Shown here: positions 24,188 to 28,238 of the stretch, in pieces
Layout: every line of letters starts with the position of its first letter
How positions within the stretch are numbered: the first letter of the stretch is position 1
NCBI GenBank assembly: GCA_002412825.1
Contig: DHVU01000005.1
Coordinates: 1 to 61,595 of the forward strand
DNA: 61,595 nucleotides
DNA from: Spirochaetaceae bacterium UBA5200
GTDB taxonomy: Bacteria > Spirochaetota > Spirochaetia > Treponematales > UBA12059
Direction: 5' to 3'
Notes under the pieces: generated by a model
Seen by the model: the letters and a program-made list of their open reading frames with translations, nothing else
Told to the model about the DNA's origin: nothing
The model's database searches: none
Position numbers and translations under genes: made by a program

Positions 24188-24216
24188 TTGACAGCAAGCC
24201 AAATCGGTACTATATC
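24188..24216 (+). promoter_or_regulatory. Promoter of the nrdR-nrdD operon (TTGACA, 17 nt, TATATC)
   Basis: Perfect -35 and 4/6 -10 in an AT-rich island, followed by palindromes at 24224-24275. Confidence 0.45.
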
Positions 24217-24328
24217 CTGTATGGCGATACGATATGAGCTACAAGAGCTTGTATAGCTATCGTAGCAAGAATTGTACCAAGCTTGAGCTTTGCCCGCGTT
24301 TTTTTTCATTTCCTGGAGGATTTAATAC

Positions 24329-24799
24329 ATGAGATGCCCCCACTGCCTGTCTATGGACGATAGGGTAATCGATTCGCGTACCCTGGCAAATGGAGAGAGC
24401 ATACGCCGCAGACGGGAATGCCTGTCCTGCGGTTTTCGATTCACCAGCTACGAGCGTATAGAAGAAAAGCCTCTCATGGTCGTAAAACGCGACAATAGGC
24501 GCGAGCCTTACGACCGGGCAAAGCTCGAGCGCGGCATACAGCGCGCCCTAGAGAAGCGCCCCGTTTCCCAGATGACCATAGAGAATATCCTTAACGAGAT
24601 AGAGGATGAGGCCGCGATGGTAGGCAAGGGCGTGAATGAGGTCCCTTCGTCCGCTCTTGGGGAGATGACCCTGCATATGCTCTACGACTTGGACAAGGTC
24701 GCCTACATACGCTTTGCCAGCGTGTACCGTAAATTCGAGTCCATGGACGAATTTATCCATGAAATAGAGAGCCTTGAGACGGCGCGGGAGGGAGACTAG
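24329..24799 (+). CDS. nrdR: Transcriptional repressor NrdR
   Basis: N-terminal zinc ribbon MRCPHC...CLSC and ATP-cone; RBS GGAGG. Confidence 0.95.
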   Translation: MRCPHCLSMDDRVIDSRTLANGESIRRRRECLSCGFRFTSYERIEEKPLMVVKRDNRREPYDRAKLERGIQRALEKRPVSQMTIENILNEIEDEAAMVGKGVNEVPSSALGEMTLHMLYDLDKVAYIRFASVYRKFESMDEFIHEIESLETAREGD

Positions 24800-24802
24800 G
24801 CT

Positions 24803-26887
24803 ATGGCTGGCAATCAGGAGGTCTTTCCCGAGTGGCGCAATTTTCTTGGCCCTGATGAGGGCTCCGGCCGCTATGTGGCCAAGCGCTCGGGTTCCATCGA
24901 GCCCTACGACAGGGAGCGCATAAGCAAGGCCCTTGATAAAGCCTTCATGGCGGTAAAAGGCGTGTCCGATCGCGAGCGGGTGGAACGCATCAGCTCAGAA
25001 GTTGAAAGCAGGCTCTCGCTGCTCATGGCAGGCCGGCACCAGAATTCCATACCCGCCATCGAGGAAATCCAGGATATCGTGGAGCTCACGCTTATCGAGG
25101 CCAAAGAAGCCGAGGTGGCGCGCGCTTATATACTGTACCGCGCCAGGCGCGAGGCCGTGCGCGACGCCCAGCGCCTCATGCTCGATATAAACAGCACTAT
25201 GGATGGCTATCTGGCCCAGGTGGACTGGCGCGTTAAGGAGAACGCCAACGTCAACTACAGCCTCGGCGGCCTCATTTTGCATAATTCGGGTTCGGTTACC
25301 GCCAATTACTGGCTCAAGAACATCTATGGGCAGGACATAGCCGAAGCCCACCGCAACGCCGATTTCCATATACACGACCTGTCCATGTTCTCCGGCTACT
25401 GCGCGGGCTGGTCGCTGCGCCAGCTCATAGCAGAAGGCTTAGGCGGCGTTCCTGACAAGATAACGAGCGCGCCGTCCAAGCACCTGTCCACCCTGGTGCA
25501 GCAGATGGTCAATTTCTTAGGGATACTGCAGAATGAGTGGGCAGGCGCCCAGGCCTTCTCAAGCTTTGACACCTACCTTGCTCCCTTTGTCAAAATCGAT
25601 GCCATGAGCGAGGAGGACGTGCGCCAATGCATACAGTCCTTCCTTTTCGGCGTGAACACGCCCAGCCGCTGGGGCAGCCAGGCGCCTTTTACCAATATAA
25701 CGCTGGACTGGAGCTGCCCCCCGGACCTTAGAGACAGGCCCGCCGTGGTAGGCGCCGTTGAACAGGCCTTCAGCTATGGCGATTGCCAGCCCGAGATGGA
25801 CATGATCAACCGCGTGTTTATCGAGCTAATGCTCGGCGGCGACGCGGACGGCAGGGGCTTTCAGTACCCCATACCTACCTACAACCTTACTAAGGATTTC
25901 GATTGGGAAAGCCCCAACGCTCAGCTGCTCTTCGAGATGACGGCAAAATACGGCACGCCTTATTTTCAGAACTTCATCAACTCAGACTTGGACCCCGGCG
26001 ACGTGCGCTCCATGTGCTGCAGGCTTCAGCTCGATAAGCGCGAGCTGCGCAAGCGGGGCGGGGGCCTCTTCGGCTCGGACGAGCTTACCGGCTCCATAGG
26101 CGTCGTCACGCTCAACCTGCCGCGCTTAGGGTATCTGTCGCAGGGCAAGAGCGAGTTTTACCGGAGGCTTGACCGCCTCTGCGACCTTGCCGCCAGGAGC
26201 CTGTCTATAAAGCGCAAGGTGTGTTCCCGCCTGCTTGAAGGCGGGCTCTTTCCTTATACCAAGCGCTACCTTAAAAATTTCGACAGCCATTTCAATACCA
26301 TAGGGCTCGTGGGCATGAACGAGTGCTCGCTCAATTTTATGGGCAAGAGCATAGCCGAGCCTGAAGGCAAGGCTTTCGCCGAGGAAATGCTCGACCATCT
26401 GCGTAGACGCATGGCCGACTACCAGGAGGATACGGGCGAGCTCTTCAATCTTGAGGCTACGCCGGCGGAAAGCACCTCCTACCGCTTGGCTAAGCACGAC
26501 AAGACGCAGTATCCGGAGATTATTACCGCGGGTACGGACGAACCCTACTATACGAATTCCACCCAGCTGCCCGCCGACTATACGGAAGATCTCTTCGACG
26601 CGCTTGACCACCAGGAGTCGCTGCAGAGCCGCTACACGGGCGGCACGGTTTTCCATATGTTCCTAGGCGAGGCCGTGGACGACTGGCGGGCGCTGCGGGA
26701 CTTGGTGCGCGCGGTGTCCAGCCGTTACCGCATACCCTATTACACCGTATCGCCTACCTTCTCGGTATGCCCCGTGCACGGCTATATATCGGGGGAGCAC
26801 TTTAACTGCCCCAAATGCAAGGCGGAGAAGGAAGCGCGCATACGCGAGGAAATAGCCATTTTAGAAAAAGAACTGGCCGGCTCATGA
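24803..26887 (+). CDS. nrdD: Anaerobic ribonucleoside-triphosphate reductase (class III) large subunit, lacking the C-terminal glycyl-radical motif
   Basis: ATP-cone, class III catalytic region and C-terminal Zn ribbon CPVHGYISGEHFNCPKCK. The ORF ends about 20 aa after the ribbon without an RxxGY motif. Confidence 0.9.
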   Translation: MAGNQEVFPEWRNFLGPDEGSGRYVAKRSGSIEPYDRERISKALDKAFMAVKGVSDRERVERISSEVESRLSLLMAGRHQNSIPAIEEIQDIVELTLIEAKEAEVARAYILYRARREAVRDAQRLMLDINSTMDGYLAQVDWRVKENANVNYSLGGLILHNSGSVTANYWLKNIYGQDIAEAHRNADFHIHDLSMFSGYCAGWSLRQLIAEGLGGVPDKITSAPSKHLSTLVQQMVNFLGILQNEWAGAQAFSSFDTYLAPFVKIDAMSEEDVRQCIQSFLFGVNTPSRWGSQAPFTNITLDWSCPPDLRDRPAVVGAVEQAFSYGDCQPEMDMINRVFIELMLGGDADGRGFQYPIPTYNLTKDFDWESPNAQLLFEMTAKYGTPYFQNFINSDLDPGDVRSMCCRLQLDKRELRKRGGGLFGSDELTGSIGVVTLNLPRLGYLSQGKSEFYRRLDRLCDLAARSLSIKRKVCSRLLEGGLFPYTKRYLKNFDSHFNTIGLVGMNECSLNFMGKSIAEPEGKAFAEEMLDHLRRRMADYQEDTGELFNLEATPAESTSYRLAKHDKTQYPEIITAGTDEPYYTNSTQLPADYTEDLFDALDHQESLQSRYTGGTVFHMFLGEAVDDWRALRDLVRAVSSRYRIPYYTVSPTFSVCPVHGYISGEHFNCPKCKAEKEARIREEIAILEKELAGS

Positions 26888-27480
26888 CAGGCTCCGGCAT
26901 AAGTAAAATTTTGGGTACTGTGAACGCTGGGAGGGGAACTATGGACGTACGGGGGGCGGGCGAGGCCAGGCTGGCCGAGCTCAAAGGGCAGCTTCTGTCG
27001 GTGCAGGGAACGCCGACGGAGGTGTACAGCCGCATCGTGGGCTACTACCGGTCGGTGCGCAATTGGAACGCGGGCAAGAGGGAGGAGTTCGGCAGGCGTA
27101 AGGAATATAGCTTTCCAAACGCGCAGCTTTGGGAAACCCCCTTGGCAAGCACTGGAGAATTAGAGGCGCGGAGCCCGAAGGCAGCCTTGCAGGCTGCGCC
27201 ACACGGCGCGAAAGCGCGCCCGGTCTCCTATCTGCTCTTTACCAGGCCCGGTTGCCATCAGTGTCCCCCCGTGCGGGAGTACATGGCGGGCACTCCGCTA
27301 TTAGGGCAGATCGTGGACGTGGACAGCGACGAGGGGCCCGACCTGGCGCGCGCATACGAGGTGATGGCTACGCCCACCGTCGTGCTCCTTGACGCCGACG
27401 GCGAAGAAGTGGCGCGCCTCTATACGCGCTCTCAGCTCGTGGCCTATATCGCGCCCGTCGCGGAAGCGAGCTACGCATAG
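26884..27480 (+). CDS. Glycyl-radical domain protein (NrdD C-terminal-like, EVYSRIVGYYRSVRNWNAGKREEF) fused to an NrdH/glutaredoxin-like redoxin domain (PGCHQC ... ATPTVVL)
   Basis: ATG 26884 overlaps the nrdD TGA (ATGA coupling). The RIVGY motif resembles the class III RNR glycyl-radical site, and the C-terminal CxxC thioredoxin-fold signature resembles NrdH CVQC. Confidence 0.6.
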   Translation: MTGSGISKILGTVNAGRGTMDVRGAGEARLAELKGQLLSVQGTPTEVYSRIVGYYRSVRNWNAGKREEFGRRKEYSFPNAQLWETPLASTGELEARSPKAALQAAPHGAKARPVSYLLFTRPGCHQCPPVREYMAGTPLLGQIVDVDSDEGPDLARAYEVMATPTVVLLDADGEEVARLYTRSQLVAYIAPVAEASYA

Positions 27481-27518
27481 AGCTTAGCGCACGGCCCGCG
27501 CCCCGCGCGGGCCTTCTT

Positions 27519-28238
27519 AAAACCAGCCTCATAGACTATCCGGGCAGAGTTAGCGCGGTCGCCTTCCTGCCCGGCTGTAACCTGCGCTGCCCTTACTGCC
27601 ATAATGCTGAACTCGTGCTCGAGCCCGACAGCTCGGGCCTCATGGAGTGGCCGCTGATACTCCGGCACCTGGAGCGCCGCCGCGGCCTCTTGTCCGGTTT
27701 GGTGCTTTCTGGGGGCGAACCCTGCCTGCAGCCGCGCTTGCCCGACATGGCCGCCGAGGCGCGCTCCCTGGGCTACGCGGTAAAGCTGGACACGAATGGC
27801 ACCCTACCCGCGGCCATAGCCCCCGTAGGCGCCGATTACATAGCTATGGACATAAAGTGCTCCCTGAGCCGCTATGGGCTCCTCTTAGGCCTACCCGCAA
27901 AGTACATTGTACCGGAAGCAGGCGTAAGCACGCCTTCAAGCGCTAGCTCGACGCTCGGGGCGGCCGTGGCTCAGAGCATGCGCATTATACGCGGCTTAGG
28001 CTGCGCCTACGAGTTTAGGATCACCTGCGCTCCGGGTATTTTCGGGCCAGAGGATGCGGAGGCTATATTGCCCTATATCGATAGCCGCGATACGATTTGG
28101 CTGCAGCCCTATAAGCCGGGCGCCGTGCTTGATCCGGTATGGGCGGCGAACGCGGGCGTGTATGAACCGGCGCTCATGGGCAAGCTGCTTGCGCTGCTGC
28201 GCCGGGCCGCGCCTAAAACCAGTATACGGGGCATGTAG
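27519..28238 (+). CDS. nrdG: Anaerobic RNR activating protein (radical SAM)
   Basis: KTSLIDYPGRVSAVAFLPGCNLRCPYCHN read in frame from 27519. No ATG/GTG/TTG exists in frame between the upstream stop at 27390 and the CX3CX2C motif (first Met codon is GTG at 27615), so the true start is undefined. Confidence 0.75.
   Translation, partial: KTSLIDYPGRVSAVAFLPGCNLRCPYCHNAELVLEPDSSGLMEWPLILRHLERRRGLLSGLVLSGGEPCLQPRLPDMAAEARSLGYAVKLDTNGTLPAAIAPVGADYIAMDIKCSLSRYGLLLGLPAKYIVPEAGVSTPSSASSTLGAAVAQSMRIIRGLGCAYEFRITCAPGIFGPEDAEAILPYIDSRDTIWLQPYKPGAVLDPVWAANAGVYEPALMGKLLALLRRAAPKTSIRGM

Follow-up and report, generated by a model that had tools for sequence, protein, structure and literature searches.

Genes at the nrdD locus

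The window, the whole 61.6-kb stretch of DNA analysed here, carries a conserved nrdR-nrdD-small ORF-nrdG cluster whose gene order is kept in the relatives L004-L007; all features described below lie on the plus strand. The ORFs, strings and coordinates given for this locus in an earlier note were re-read in the sequence, and all are as described there. The first gene, nrdR (24329..24799), encodes a transcriptional repressor with a Zn ribbon and an ATP-cone (Pfam Zn_ribbon_NrdR 69.4 bits, ATP-cone 71.9 bits). It is followed by nrdD (24803..26887), which runs from ATG 24803 to TGA 26885-26887 and encodes 694 aa, and then by a second ORF in a different frame.

The last gene of the cluster, nrdG (27477..28238), adjoins the small ORF, is syntenic with it in relatives, and encodes a radical SAM activase (NCBIfam TIGR02495 NrdG2, 159.4 bits against a cut-off of 131.15) with the cluster motif CNLRCPYC at 27576-27599. 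No ATG, GTG or TTG was found upstream of this motif, and a canonical start is missing in this clade. The true start of nrdG is therefore uncertain, and its expression, hence activation, is not straightforward here. Two database proteins appear to fuse the glycyl-radical domain (GRD) and redoxin of the small protein to NrdG, on contigs that are short and doubtful.

A catalytic subunit without a glycyl-radical site

The nrdD product exceeds the curated cut-offs of three profiles (PF13597 NRDD, 577 bits against 26.2; PRK08270, 1064 against 548; TIGR02487, 469 against 326), and its predicted model matches NrdD structures in Foldseek with an E value of 1e-28. It consists of an ATP-cone (residues 24-117), the barrel, a Zn ribbon and a C-terminal amphipathic helix. 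The RxxGY glycyl-radical motif is absent from the polypeptide, which covers positions 1-532 of 562 in the Pfam NRDD model and 4-655 of 684 in NCBIfam PRK08270 and ends there. The 120 closest database NrdD homologues, at 72-100% identity, are 590-735 aa long, and most, at 690-735 aa, have this truncated form.

The active site was read by phmmer alignment to 4coi/4u3e, with residue roles taken from PMC4493059. Cys200 in GYCAGW (25400..25402) is the predicted equivalent of T. maritima Tyr124-Cys125, the conserved reducing cysteine on strand beta-A. The finger loop M404-C405-C406-R407 (26012..26023) is of the double-Cys MCCR type and aligns with T. maritima SCCR, and Glu551 in FNLEATPAE (26453..26455) aligns with FNIEQVPAE, at the glutamate position of thiol-dependent NrdD2-type active sites. 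An active-site glutamate and a third cysteine have been tied to thioredoxin-dependent class III ribonucleotide reductases (RNRs) (PMC9669993, PMC4493059). By the T. maritima alignment, C405/C406 and E551 thus fit a thiol-reductant NrdD2-type enzyme, in line with the earlier remark that some class III RNR subtypes employ thioredoxin or glutaredoxin-like reductants in place of formate, although the methionine keeps formate possible. The MCCR variant is known from NrdDh4; PMC9669993 considers what it means and states that a finger loop starting with Met also permits formate as reductant. The redoxin described below may therefore not be the sole or main electron donor.

A putative metal site, the Zn ribbon, was found by direct reading at 26768..26818 as C656-x2-H659 ... 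C669-x2-C672 (C656-P-V-H659 and C669-P-K-C672), and it is kept as CP[VI]HGY...CPxC in all loci compared. The nrdD reading frame ends 22 residues past this ribbon, with AEKEARIREEIAILEKELAGS immediately before the stop.

A small subunit with a glycyl-radical loop and a redoxin domain

The product of the small ORF matches Pfam NRDD over model positions 532-562 of 562 (E 1.3e-7, 31.2 bits; cut-off 26.2) and PRK08270 over 649-682 of 684. The coverage of both models by the two ORFs is complementary, and the second ORF therefore supplies exactly the C-terminus that is absent from NrdD. The earlier note had placed the glycyl-radical site on this ORF and expected a profile search to find the C-terminal NRDD segment in it; both are confirmed by this match, which lies above the cut-off. 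No match to PF01228 Gly_radical is listed for the small ORF, and only the C-terminal PF13597 NRDD segment matches.

The gene (26941..27480, stop TAG 27478-27480) encodes 179 aa, comprising an N-terminal helix, the radical loop, a linker and the redoxin; this 179-aa protein (P0001) is the one predicted by the gene callers of three assemblies. An overlap of ATG 26884 with the nrdD TGA is present in the window and had been interpreted as ATGA translational coupling. This is not supported, since the overlap is confined to the closest relatives of the window, whereas the start that relatives conserve is ATG 26941 in the same frame; it lies 53 nt past the nrdD stop in the window and has its own Shine-Dalgarno (SD) sequence, GGGAGGGG (26928..26935, direct reading). 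Two further ATGs lie upstream in the same frame, at 26884 and 26815, and are unlikely to serve as starts. The RIVGY motif does lie on the second ORF, as had been claimed, but 26 residues in from the conserved start instead of about 45.

The glycyl-radical loop, TEVYSRIVGYYRSVRNWNAGKREEF (27016..27090), is almost identical to the canonical NrdD C-terminus. It includes EVYSRIVGYYRSVRNWNAGKREEF at nt 27019-27090, in which the predicted radical residue is Gly34 (codon 27040-27042). The small ORF has more than 1000 homologues, the best 120 of which span 148-228 aa, and the family forms 152 clusters (50% identity) at E<1e-30, with the best 150 listed all short. RIVGY is found in 263/266 family members, and in alignment A1 there are 21 invariant columns in or beside the radical loop, from Gly23 to Arg53. 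These alignments show strong constraint on the radical loop. It is followed by a low-complexity linker (27091..27222), predicted to be flexible (pLDDT <50 at residues 717-785 of an AF2 chimera of the two proteins); among family members, the GRD block and the CxxC lie a median of 46 residues apart (range 4-149).

The remainder of the protein is a thioredoxin/glutaredoxin-fold domain (27223..27477), recognized by its CxxC and cis-Pro conservation, profile matches and the AF2 model. Its PGCHQC contains CHQC at 27253-27264, and ATPTV at 27367-27381 includes the cis-Pro T-P-T at 27370-27378. The CxxC is present in 266/269 members, with C105, C108 and P145-T146 invariant in alignment A1; the motif is CPNC in 190/266 members, CHQC being the other form, as in the window. 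The predicted fold is b-a-b-a-b-b-a over chimera residues 786-868 at pLDDT ~90 (strands 790-795, 815-820, 840-844 and 850-854; helices 802-810, 826-832 and 857-872). When the family profile was compared with PDB, P. furiosus PDO/Grx-like proteins and small thioredoxins were the best matches (4e-11 to 1e-5). The fusion of the radical-site ORF to a CxxC thioredoxin-fold domain is thus upheld by the CxxC count, the profile match of 4e-11 and the AF2 model. A thioredoxin-fold Pfam match, expected by the earlier note, was obtained only in part: the window protein stays under the gathering thresholds (Thioredoxin_2 23.3 against 27; Glutaredoxin 17.5 against 22.9), whereas the family profile matches PDB redoxins, Pfam Glutaredoxin matches 43/58 members, and the relatives P0222 (25.0) and P0261 (23.8) are over the Glutaredoxin threshold. 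The proposed likeness to NrdH proved weak. The motif is CPNC or CHQC and not CVQC, NrdH structures are matched only at E values of 4.5e-3 to 5e-3, with PDO, Trx and Grx ahead of them, and no NrdH family is among the NCBIfam matches. From these profile comparisons, the nearest relatives of the domain are small archaeal redoxins of the Trx/PDO type.

Helices at the junction

Amphipathic helices are predicted on both sides of the break from hydrophobic periodicity and AF2 modelling. The first, AEKEARIREEIAILEKELAGS (26822..26884), ends NrdD and is the proposed docking helix; the second, GEARLAELKGQLLSVQG (26959..27009), starts the small subunit and is its proposed partner. Both segments have a/d heptad hydrophobic periodicity. 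Among 66 species, L, I, V, M or F occurs at +8, +12, +15 and +19 after the CxxC in 100, 98, 98 and 55%, and the corresponding values at -5, -8, -12, -15 and -19 before TEVY are 83, 97, 74, 100 and 77%. The number of residues preceding RIVGY is near-constant (median 30, IQR 30-31). In the AF2 chimera the helices span residues 670-693 (pLDDT ~67-83) and 698-716, with a pLDDT of 65-83 for the pair, in a hairpin that comes from a single covalently linked chain with essentially zero alignment depth over residues 661-709. Modelling of NrdD with the small ORF, proposed earlier as a way to find a complementing fold, thus predicts the two junction helices but leaves the radical loop outside the barrel, at pLDDT <50.

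Split loci across spirochaetes

The earlier note asked whether close NrdD relatives have the same split; 72 species-level spirochaete loci do, cultured Treponema among them. Spirochaete species with this arrangement number in the hundreds. A total of 540 genome matches was obtained, and the best 80 of these are almost all Spirochaetota and include the cultured Treponema lecithinolyticum ATCC 700332 and Treponema sp. OMZ 840. Of the 72 split loci, 20 have the two ORFs at a frame offset of 0, 17 at +1 and 35 at +2, and the spacer from nrdD to the small ORF ranges from -23 to 290 nt (median 53 nt, also the value in the window). A purine-rich, SD-like motif precedes the small-ORF start in 71 of them, and in many species stop codons are found just 5' of the small-ORF Met. 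No intron, intein or HEG was found between the halves, and the SD is the only recognisable feature of the 53-nt spacer in the window. In the long-read relative L006, nrdD is in pieces, and in L088 both ORFs are in one frame with a single TAA between them.

Unsplit NrdD-redoxin fusions are found in the same phylum (L060, L063, L076 and P0222). The first three are without both junction helices, so that CPxCG is followed by 2-4 residues and then EVYSRIVGYY. Split loci, in comparison, have ~37 extra residues of conserved helix flanking the break, which are absent from the unsplit forms.

Alternative explanations

The split could be apparent only, produced by a sequencing or assembly frameshift or by a recent pseudogene in what is really a single uninterrupted nrdD that includes the motif in its frame. 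The window itself invites this reading, since its ORFs overlap by 4 nt (ATGA) in adjacent frames, nrdG lies off by that same single base once more and has no start codon, as if the sequence were indel-prone, and the nrdD of L006 is in pieces. However, three independent assemblies carry identical DNA at the locus, and 72 species show the split in all three frame relations, with spacers of up to 290 nt and an SD and ATG of their own in nearly all. The stops just before the small-ORF Met, the ~37 helix residues missing from unsplit forms, and a small family of more than 150 clusters, all short among the best 150, also stand against an error, which we consider extremely improbable. The two-ORF organisation is genuine and no assembly artefact, and the earlier note was right, by the comparative data on the 72 loci, to argue against one. 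The two ORFs could still yield one polypeptide, and so a functionally normal NrdD-redoxin fusion, by programmed ribosomal frameshifting or stop read-through. In the window the small-ORF frame stays open from 26815 onward, past the nrdD stop, unsplit fusions do exist in the phylum, and a single TAA parts the ORFs of L088. This too is very improbable: the offsets are spread over all three frames, gaps reach 290 nt with in-frame stops, no slippery site was seen when the sequence was searched by eye, and nearly all loci keep an SD and an ATG at a fixed 30-31 residues before RIVGY.

The small protein might instead be a GrcA/YfiD-like spare radical domain that mends an oxygen-cleaved, full-length NrdD encoded elsewhere, the local nrdD being decayed or regulatory. 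Stand-alone small glycyl-radical proteins such as GrcA and T4 Y06I/vs.6 are precedents, and the DNA examined is one 61.6-kb window, so that a full-length NrdD elsewhere in the genome is possible. Yet the adjoining NrdD is highly conserved across its 120 homologues, with intact catalytic residues, and always keeps the small ORF and nrdG as syntenic neighbours; its terminal helix is conserved and exists only in split loci; and the loop matches the NRDD model, with no Gly_radical match listed. We regard this as improbable. The GrcA-like analogy drawn earlier applies in form only: since the partner NrdD itself contains no radical domain, the small protein would be indispensable rather than a spare. 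A further alternative accepts the split and the radical role and assigns the redoxin another task, with formate as the reductant: it may gate activation as a sensor of redox state or oxygen, keep the active-site thiols protected or repaired, or serve as a contact with NrdG. The MCCR methionine suits a formate/thiosulfuranyl mechanism, CPNC and CHQC are atypical of known RNR reductants, and the two apparent GRD-redoxin-NrdG fusions hint at a link to activation. On the other side, those fusions sit on doubtful contigs, the third cysteine and the glutamate are the signature of thiol-dependent reduction, the CxxC and cis-Pro are essentially invariant, as for a catalytic dithiol, and the Grx tethered to NrdB has been proven to work as a reductant. 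Such a role is unlikely, but it is to be taken seriously.

The reading that we prefer, with a probability of about 70%, is that the locus encodes a heteromeric class III (glycyl-radical) RNR, an oxygen-sensitive enzyme supplying the building blocks of DNA, made from two polypeptides, in which the small subunit is both the NrdG-activated radical carrier and a tethered disulfide reductant. Observed here are the architecture of the genes and how it is conserved, which domains the proteins contain, and the pattern of residues in the active site; docking through the helices, activation in trans and the reductant role are inferred from these.

Comparison with known systems

We found no paper describing a two-gene layout of NrdD and a GRD-redoxin protein. 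Canonical NrdD/NrdG systems (E. coli, phage T4, T. maritima, P. copri; PDB 1h78, 4coi, 8p23) share the ATP-cone, barrel, finger-loop cysteines, Zn ribbon and RxxGY loop, as well as a radical-SAM activase in the operon and a neighbouring NrdR. Here, in contrast, the loop is on a separate polypeptide, extra amphipathic helices lie at the break, and a redoxin is carried on the radical chain. NrdD2 enzymes (Neisseria bacilliformis, T. maritima; NrdDh subclass) share the beta-A Tyr-Cys, the double-Cys finger loop and the active-site Glu. Their reductant is free thioredoxin, whereas the redoxin here is covalently tethered, and their finger loop is SCCR, compared with an MCCR here that makes formate use possible.

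A redoxin on the radical-carrying RNR subunit is also known from the Grx::NrdB of Facklamia ignava, where the Grx domain fused to the radical-generating NrdB is a working and efficient reductant of the holoenzyme (PMC6187632). That enzyme belongs to class I: its NrdB is of the di-metal/tyrosyl type, its Grx (CPYC-type grxC family) is N-terminal, and its subunits are separate by nature. The RefSeq survey in the same study lists one grx::nrdD fusion only (Lachnospiraceae TWA4), and the spirochaete GRD-redoxin family is not listed.

GrcA (YfiD) and phage T4 Y06I/vs.6 are likewise small and free-standing, with a glycyl-radical loop able to complement a barrel in trans. They are PFL-type (Pfam Gly_radical) spares for an enzyme with its own radical domain, whereas the protein described here has an NrdD-type loop, a partner without a radical domain and a fused redoxin. 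Alpha chains encoded by two adjacent ORFs are known from class II NrdJa/NrdJb, phage Aeh1 NrdA-a/NrdA-b and split phage nrdD, and NrdJa carries an additional folded domain at its C-terminus, through which it is believed to associate with NrdJb. Phage splits result mostly from introns, inteins or homing endonucleases, none of which is present here. The break in the spirochaete loci isolates the radical cofactor site, which has no class II equivalent.

Proposed mechanism and implications

In the two-polypeptide enzyme, NrdD would contribute allosteric regulation through its ATP-cone, an NrdD2-type barrel (Cys200, Met404-Cys405-Cys406, Glu551) and the Zn ribbon, and the radical site would come from Gly34 of the small subunit. 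Docking may occur by pairing of the helix that ends NrdD with the helix that starts the small subunit, a pair that would resemble an inserted helical hairpin with its loop cut. NrdG would act in trans by making the glycyl radical on the small subunit, and the radical loop would enter the barrel of NrdD and lie next to the cysteines of the finger loop. Carried on a flexible linker of ~45 residues, the CxxC redoxin could re-reduce the active-site disulfide after each turnover, and this built-in source of reducing power would have counterparts in the Cys-pair tail of class I/II RNRs and in the Grx domain on Facklamia NrdB.

Oxygen damage cleaves glycyl-radical proteins at the glycine, and a likely benefit of the two-polypeptide enzyme is that such cleavage would cost only a cheap small subunit. 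A tentative extension, which we consider possible but would not yet favour, is that the small protein is a dissociable and replaceable radical cartridge, a beta-like class III subunit. It would be activated by NrdG, perhaps while free, plug its loop into the barrel and be latched by a two-helix zipper; its redoxin would recycle the disulfide with no need for formate, and the 20-kDa part would be swapped after oxygen cleavage. If the cartridge reading is true, the enzyme would be the first of the glycyl-radical type to have its radical cofactor obligatorily borne by a second subunit, and class III would be less sharply set apart from class I with its two-subunit logic.

The radical site of NrdD is encoded by a separate gene

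The nrd operon lies on the + strand of the window and comprises nrdR (24329–24799), nrdD (24803–26887, 694 aa), a small ORF ending with TAG at 27480, and nrdG, which ends at 28238. The distribution of the canonical NrdD sequence over these genes was assessed with profile models. On nrdD, Pfam NRDD aligned over model positions 1–532 of 562 and NCBIfam PRK08270 over positions 4–655 of 684. The small ORF matched NRDD positions 532–562 of 562 (31.2 bits, cut-off 26.2) and PRK08270 positions 649–682 of 684. This complementary coverage indicates that one canonical NrdD is shared between two ORFs, with the cut falling just after the Zn ribbon (C656-x2-H659...C669-x2-C672). The above-cut-off match also upholds the earlier note's placement of the glycyl-radical site on the second ORF, and the sequence strings and coordinates in that note were all correct when the window was read again.

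A break of this kind could reflect a sequencing frameshift, or a programmed frameshift or read-through between two parts of one gene. The identical nrdD protein and gene calls were obtained from three independent assemblies (Logan SRR5324094, JGI 3300002700 and Logan SRR1313277). Both nrdD and the small ORF were visible in 72 loci; the small ORF is offset from the nrdD frame by 0 in 20 of these, by +1 in 17 and by +2 in 35, the spacer varies from -23 to 290 nt (median 53), and an SD-like purine-rich motif precedes the small-ORF start in 71. The mixed frame offsets, variable spacers and SD motifs rule out programmed frameshifting and read-through and, together with the three matching assemblies, a sequencing frameshift. 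Thus, the small ORF is an independently initiated gene, and the earlier note's reading of a genuine two-ORF organization, with the same split expected in relatives, is borne out. A true assembly frameshift, contrasting with this conserved split, is found in L006:2375–4472, on a long-read-style 1-Mb contig (ERZ25039527), where nrdD is fragmented into three ORFs of 129, 82 and 460 aa; a short-read assembly of that organism has the gene intact, at 700 aa.

Translational coupling of the two genes through an ATGA overlap at ATG 26884, as first proposed, did not hold as a conserved feature, since only the window and its nearest relatives, with near-identical DNA there, have the overlap. In more distant species a stop closes the frame a few codons upstream of the small-ORF Met, which lies 30–31 residues ahead of RIVGY. 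The window's counterpart of this Met is ATG 26941, with GGGAGGGG ahead of it, and gene callers also pick the resulting 179-aa product.

More than 1000 homologues of the small protein were found, and the best 120 are 148–228 aa long, all with the NRDD C-terminal Pfam match. When its profile was run against 1.84 billion cluster representatives, 152 clusters matched at E<1e-30 and 831 at E<1e-10, with lengths of 125–345 aa in all of the best 150. When one genome per species was scanned, 540 loci were confirmed. The best 80 are nearly all from Spirochaetota (Treponema, Treponemataceae, Rectinemataceae and Spirochaetaceae). Cultured carriers among them are T. lecithinolyticum ATCC 700332, Treponema sp. 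OMZ 840 and Ca. Marispirochaeta associata. A spirochaete-type operon also occurs in three loci whose records are titled Prevotella sp., Paratractidigestivibacter sp. and Marinamargulisbacteria (L057, L058 and L083); these odd labels reflect either mis-binning or horizontal transfer.

The small subunit combines a radical loop with a redoxin domain

Numbered from the Met at 26941, the small subunit consists of an amphipathic helix (residues 7–23), the radical loop TEVYSRIVGYYRSVRNWNAGKREEF (residues 26–50, predicted radical Gly34), a low-complexity linker (about 51–94) and a redoxin domain (about 95–170) with C105-H-Q-C108 and T144-P145-T146. Across 58 diverse members, the invariant alignment columns include G23, T26–R37, N41–N43, G45–R47, E49 and R53 and, further downstream, F100, C105, C108, D126, A136, P145, T146 and R159. 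An R[IV]xGY motif followed by CxxC is present in 266 of 269 family members; among these 266, the motif reads RIVGY in 263 and the CxxC reads CPNC in 190, CHQC being the variant of the window's clade. The linker between radical block and CxxC ranges from 4 to 149 residues (median 46), and the N-terminal segment is constant in length.

The redoxin domain was compared with solved structures using the family profile. The profile matched the P. furiosus protein disulfide oxidoreductase 1a8l at 4e-11, as well as the Grx-like protein 1j08 and the small thioredoxins 2lst, 1fo5 and 3zij, whereas NrdH structures were reached at 4.5e-3 only. Pfam Glutaredoxin matched 43 of the 58 members at E<0.01. For the window's own protein, the expected NRDD C-terminal match was obtained, but every match to Pfam Trx and Grx models fell below its gathering threshold. 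In an AF2 model of a chimera joining NrdD and the small subunit as one chain, this domain adopts a beta-alpha-beta-alpha-beta-beta-alpha fold (pLDDT about 90); the 50 Foldseek matches listed for the chimera are all NrdD or class I RNR structures, and none covers the redoxin domain. From the profile matches and the model, we conclude that the C-terminal domain is a predicted minimal CxxC redoxin of the Trx/Grx superfamily. The proposed fusion of a thioredoxin-fold CxxC domain to the radical-site ORF therefore stands, but its likeness to NrdH is weak, and the redoxin is not an NrdH family member.

The catalytic subunit retains NrdD2-type residues

Alignment to 4coi and 4u3e places GYC200 of NrdD at T. 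maritima Y124-C125, M404-C405-C406-R407 at SCCR, and FNLE551ATPAE at FNIEQVPAE. Enzymes of the NrdD2 type are defined by a third Cys together with this active-site Glu, and thioredoxin-dependent reduction was shown for the type in N. bacilliformis (PMC4493059, PMC9669993). The MCCR finger loop is the NrdDh4 variant, which keeps the Met tied to formate chemistry; with this Met retained, either the redoxin or formate is possible as reductant. The closest 120 NrdD homologues (72–100% identity) are 590–735 aa long, mostly 690–735, which is the length of the NrdD form without the radical domain.

Helices flank the break and are missing from most unsplit forms

Every split NrdD extends about 20–39 residues beyond the last Zn-ribbon Cys (e.g., KAEKEARIREEIAILEKELAGS), and every small subunit opens with a matching segment (e.g., M..GEARLAELKGQLLSVQGTP). 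Over 66 species, L/I/V/M/F occupies positions +8, +12, +15 and +19 of the NrdD tail in 100, 98, 98 and 55%, and positions -5, -8, -12, -15 and -19 before TEVY in 83, 97, 74, 100 and 77%. In both segments the hydrophobic residues are spaced by 3–4 (a/d heptad), with charged residues between them.

Unsplit forms, in which NrdD, radical block, linker and redoxin are continuous, occur in the same phylum: L060:1443–4037 (864 aa), L063:1419–3956 (845 aa), L076:1446–3959 (837 aa), the partial L080:3–1547, and the fragment P0222. In L060, L063, L076 and P0222, CPxCG is followed after 2–4 residues by EVYSRIVGYY and then by linker and redoxin, and both helices are missing from the junction. L080 is unsplit, yet about 40 inserted residues separate its Zn ribbon from its radical loop, and it may be an intermediate form. 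The presence of the helices together with the break suggests antiparallel pairing into a two-helix zipper, and we infer that such a zipper, like a cut helical hairpin, would keep the radical subunit on NrdD. A neighbor-joining tree of NrdD cores, computed with neither support values nor an outgroup, nests the unsplit sequences within the split ones; either state may be ancestral.

Besides confirming the redoxin fold, the chimera model (overall pLDDT 69.8) predicted a helix on either side of the junction (670–693 and 698–716, pLDDT 65–83). Since the two subunits form one covalent chain in this model and the alignment has zero depth across the junction (residues 661–709), the predicted helices argue only weakly for pairing. 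The radical loop was not docked in the barrel (pLDDT below 50), so the model gives no evidence on the complementing fold suggested earlier. A single-sequence AF2 model of the chimera (pLDDT 36) was set aside.

The NrdD tail helix (26822–26884, KAEKEARIREEIAILEKEL) resembles the small-subunit helix (26959–27009, GEARLAELKGQLLSV), the two sharing EAR[IL]..E[IL]. The two helices may have arisen by duplication or may pair quasi-symmetrically, and the resemblance probably caused MAFFT to misalign small proteins or NrdD C-termini.

The nrdG start and the upstream region

The nrdG frame opens at 27393, and no ATG, GTG or TTG lies between the in-frame stop at 27390–27392 and GTG 27615, the first canonical start, which is downstream of the cluster motif CNLRCPYC (27576–27599). 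The closest relatives (L007/L008 and L009) likewise lack a canonical start upstream of the radical-SAM CxxxCxxC. Among 63 loci scored, window included, 58 have a canonical start 2–21 codons (mostly 6–9) before KTSLxDYPG. In L011, a CTG behind a GGGAGG SD is seemingly used. Speculatively, ATA 27477–27479, which overlaps the TAG of the small ORF, is a candidate re-initiation codon for nrdG.

Two database proteins, P0254 (L088:501–1463) and P0198, carry a glycyl-radical loop, redoxin and NrdG radical-SAM activase in frame. L088, the only one examined at the DNA level, is a 2-kb contig of a highly fragmented MAG; its nrdD and small ORF share one frame with a single TAA between them, and an SD-linked ATG lies one base out of frame. 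These fusions may be errors and, given this fragmentary and irregular DNA, were set aside as Rosetta-stone evidence.

No match to the NrdR-box consensus, which is proteobacterial, was found near the operon, a sigma-70 consensus scan called no promoter-like site, and a terminator scan gave only chance-level sites inside nrdD. Upstream of nrdR, window positions 24189–24275 contain TTGACA and TACTAT separated by 17 nt, with a sigma-70-type appearance uncalled by the consensus scan. These two hexamers are closely followed by an imperfect palindrome, GCTACAAGAGCTTGTATAGC, a possible operator.

Discussion

To our knowledge, the radical glycine of class III RNRs, and of glycyl-radical enzymes generally, has been described at the C-terminus of the catalytic chain. 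In the large conserved clade analyzed here, which has cultured members including oral Treponema, the radical site is relocated to a separate small subunit that also bears a candidate reductant. The architecture of this split class III RNR, its conservation and its residue patterns are directly observed. Class II NrdJa/NrdJb is likewise a split RNR, and phage RNR genes are also split, there by mobile elements. GrcA and T4 vs.6, as autonomous glycyl-radical proteins, and Grx fusions to RNR subunits embody related ideas. A 2018 RefSeq survey of Grx-RNR fusions reported one grx::nrdD, from a Lachnospiraceae bacterium, and the spirochaete family is absent from it (PMC6187632). Two large RNR surveys, on phylogeny and on extensions, make no reference to class III enzymes that are split. 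Our literature search, in which subscription journals were thinly covered and a prior description is thus possible, found no split NrdD with a separate radical-redoxin subunit. The profile matches include no dedicated NCBIfam or Pfam family for the small protein. Its annotation varies among 'hypothetical protein', 'thiol reductase thioredoxin' and 'anaerobic ribonucleoside-triphosphate reductase'. The name given to the large gene is that of a complete NrdD; the names of both genes need correction.

In the proposed mechanism, NrdG would generate the radical at Gly34 of the small subunit, and the radical loop would sit in the NrdD barrel beside Cys405/406, with the helix pair providing affinity between the chains. 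After every turnover, the tethered redoxin would reduce the Cys200–Cys405/406 disulfide again, and a cellular reductase would in turn recycle the redoxin. We propose docking, trans-activation and the reductant role by homology and on a single precedent: in Facklamia ignava, a Grx domain fused to the radical-generating NrdB is an efficient RNR reductant (PMC6187632).

If this mechanism is true, the spirochaete enzyme would be a natural system for studying radical installation and radical-domain docking in trans, and would give a handle on electron supply to thiol-dependent class III RNRs. Glycyl-radical proteins are cleaved at the glycine by oxygen, and in E. coli cleaved PFL is rescued by GrcA. 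By the same reasoning, oxygen exposure would cost the split enzyme its small subunit only, and confining the loss in this way is a plausible selective advantage. The split may thus represent an oxygen-damage economy in micro-oxic spirochaetes.
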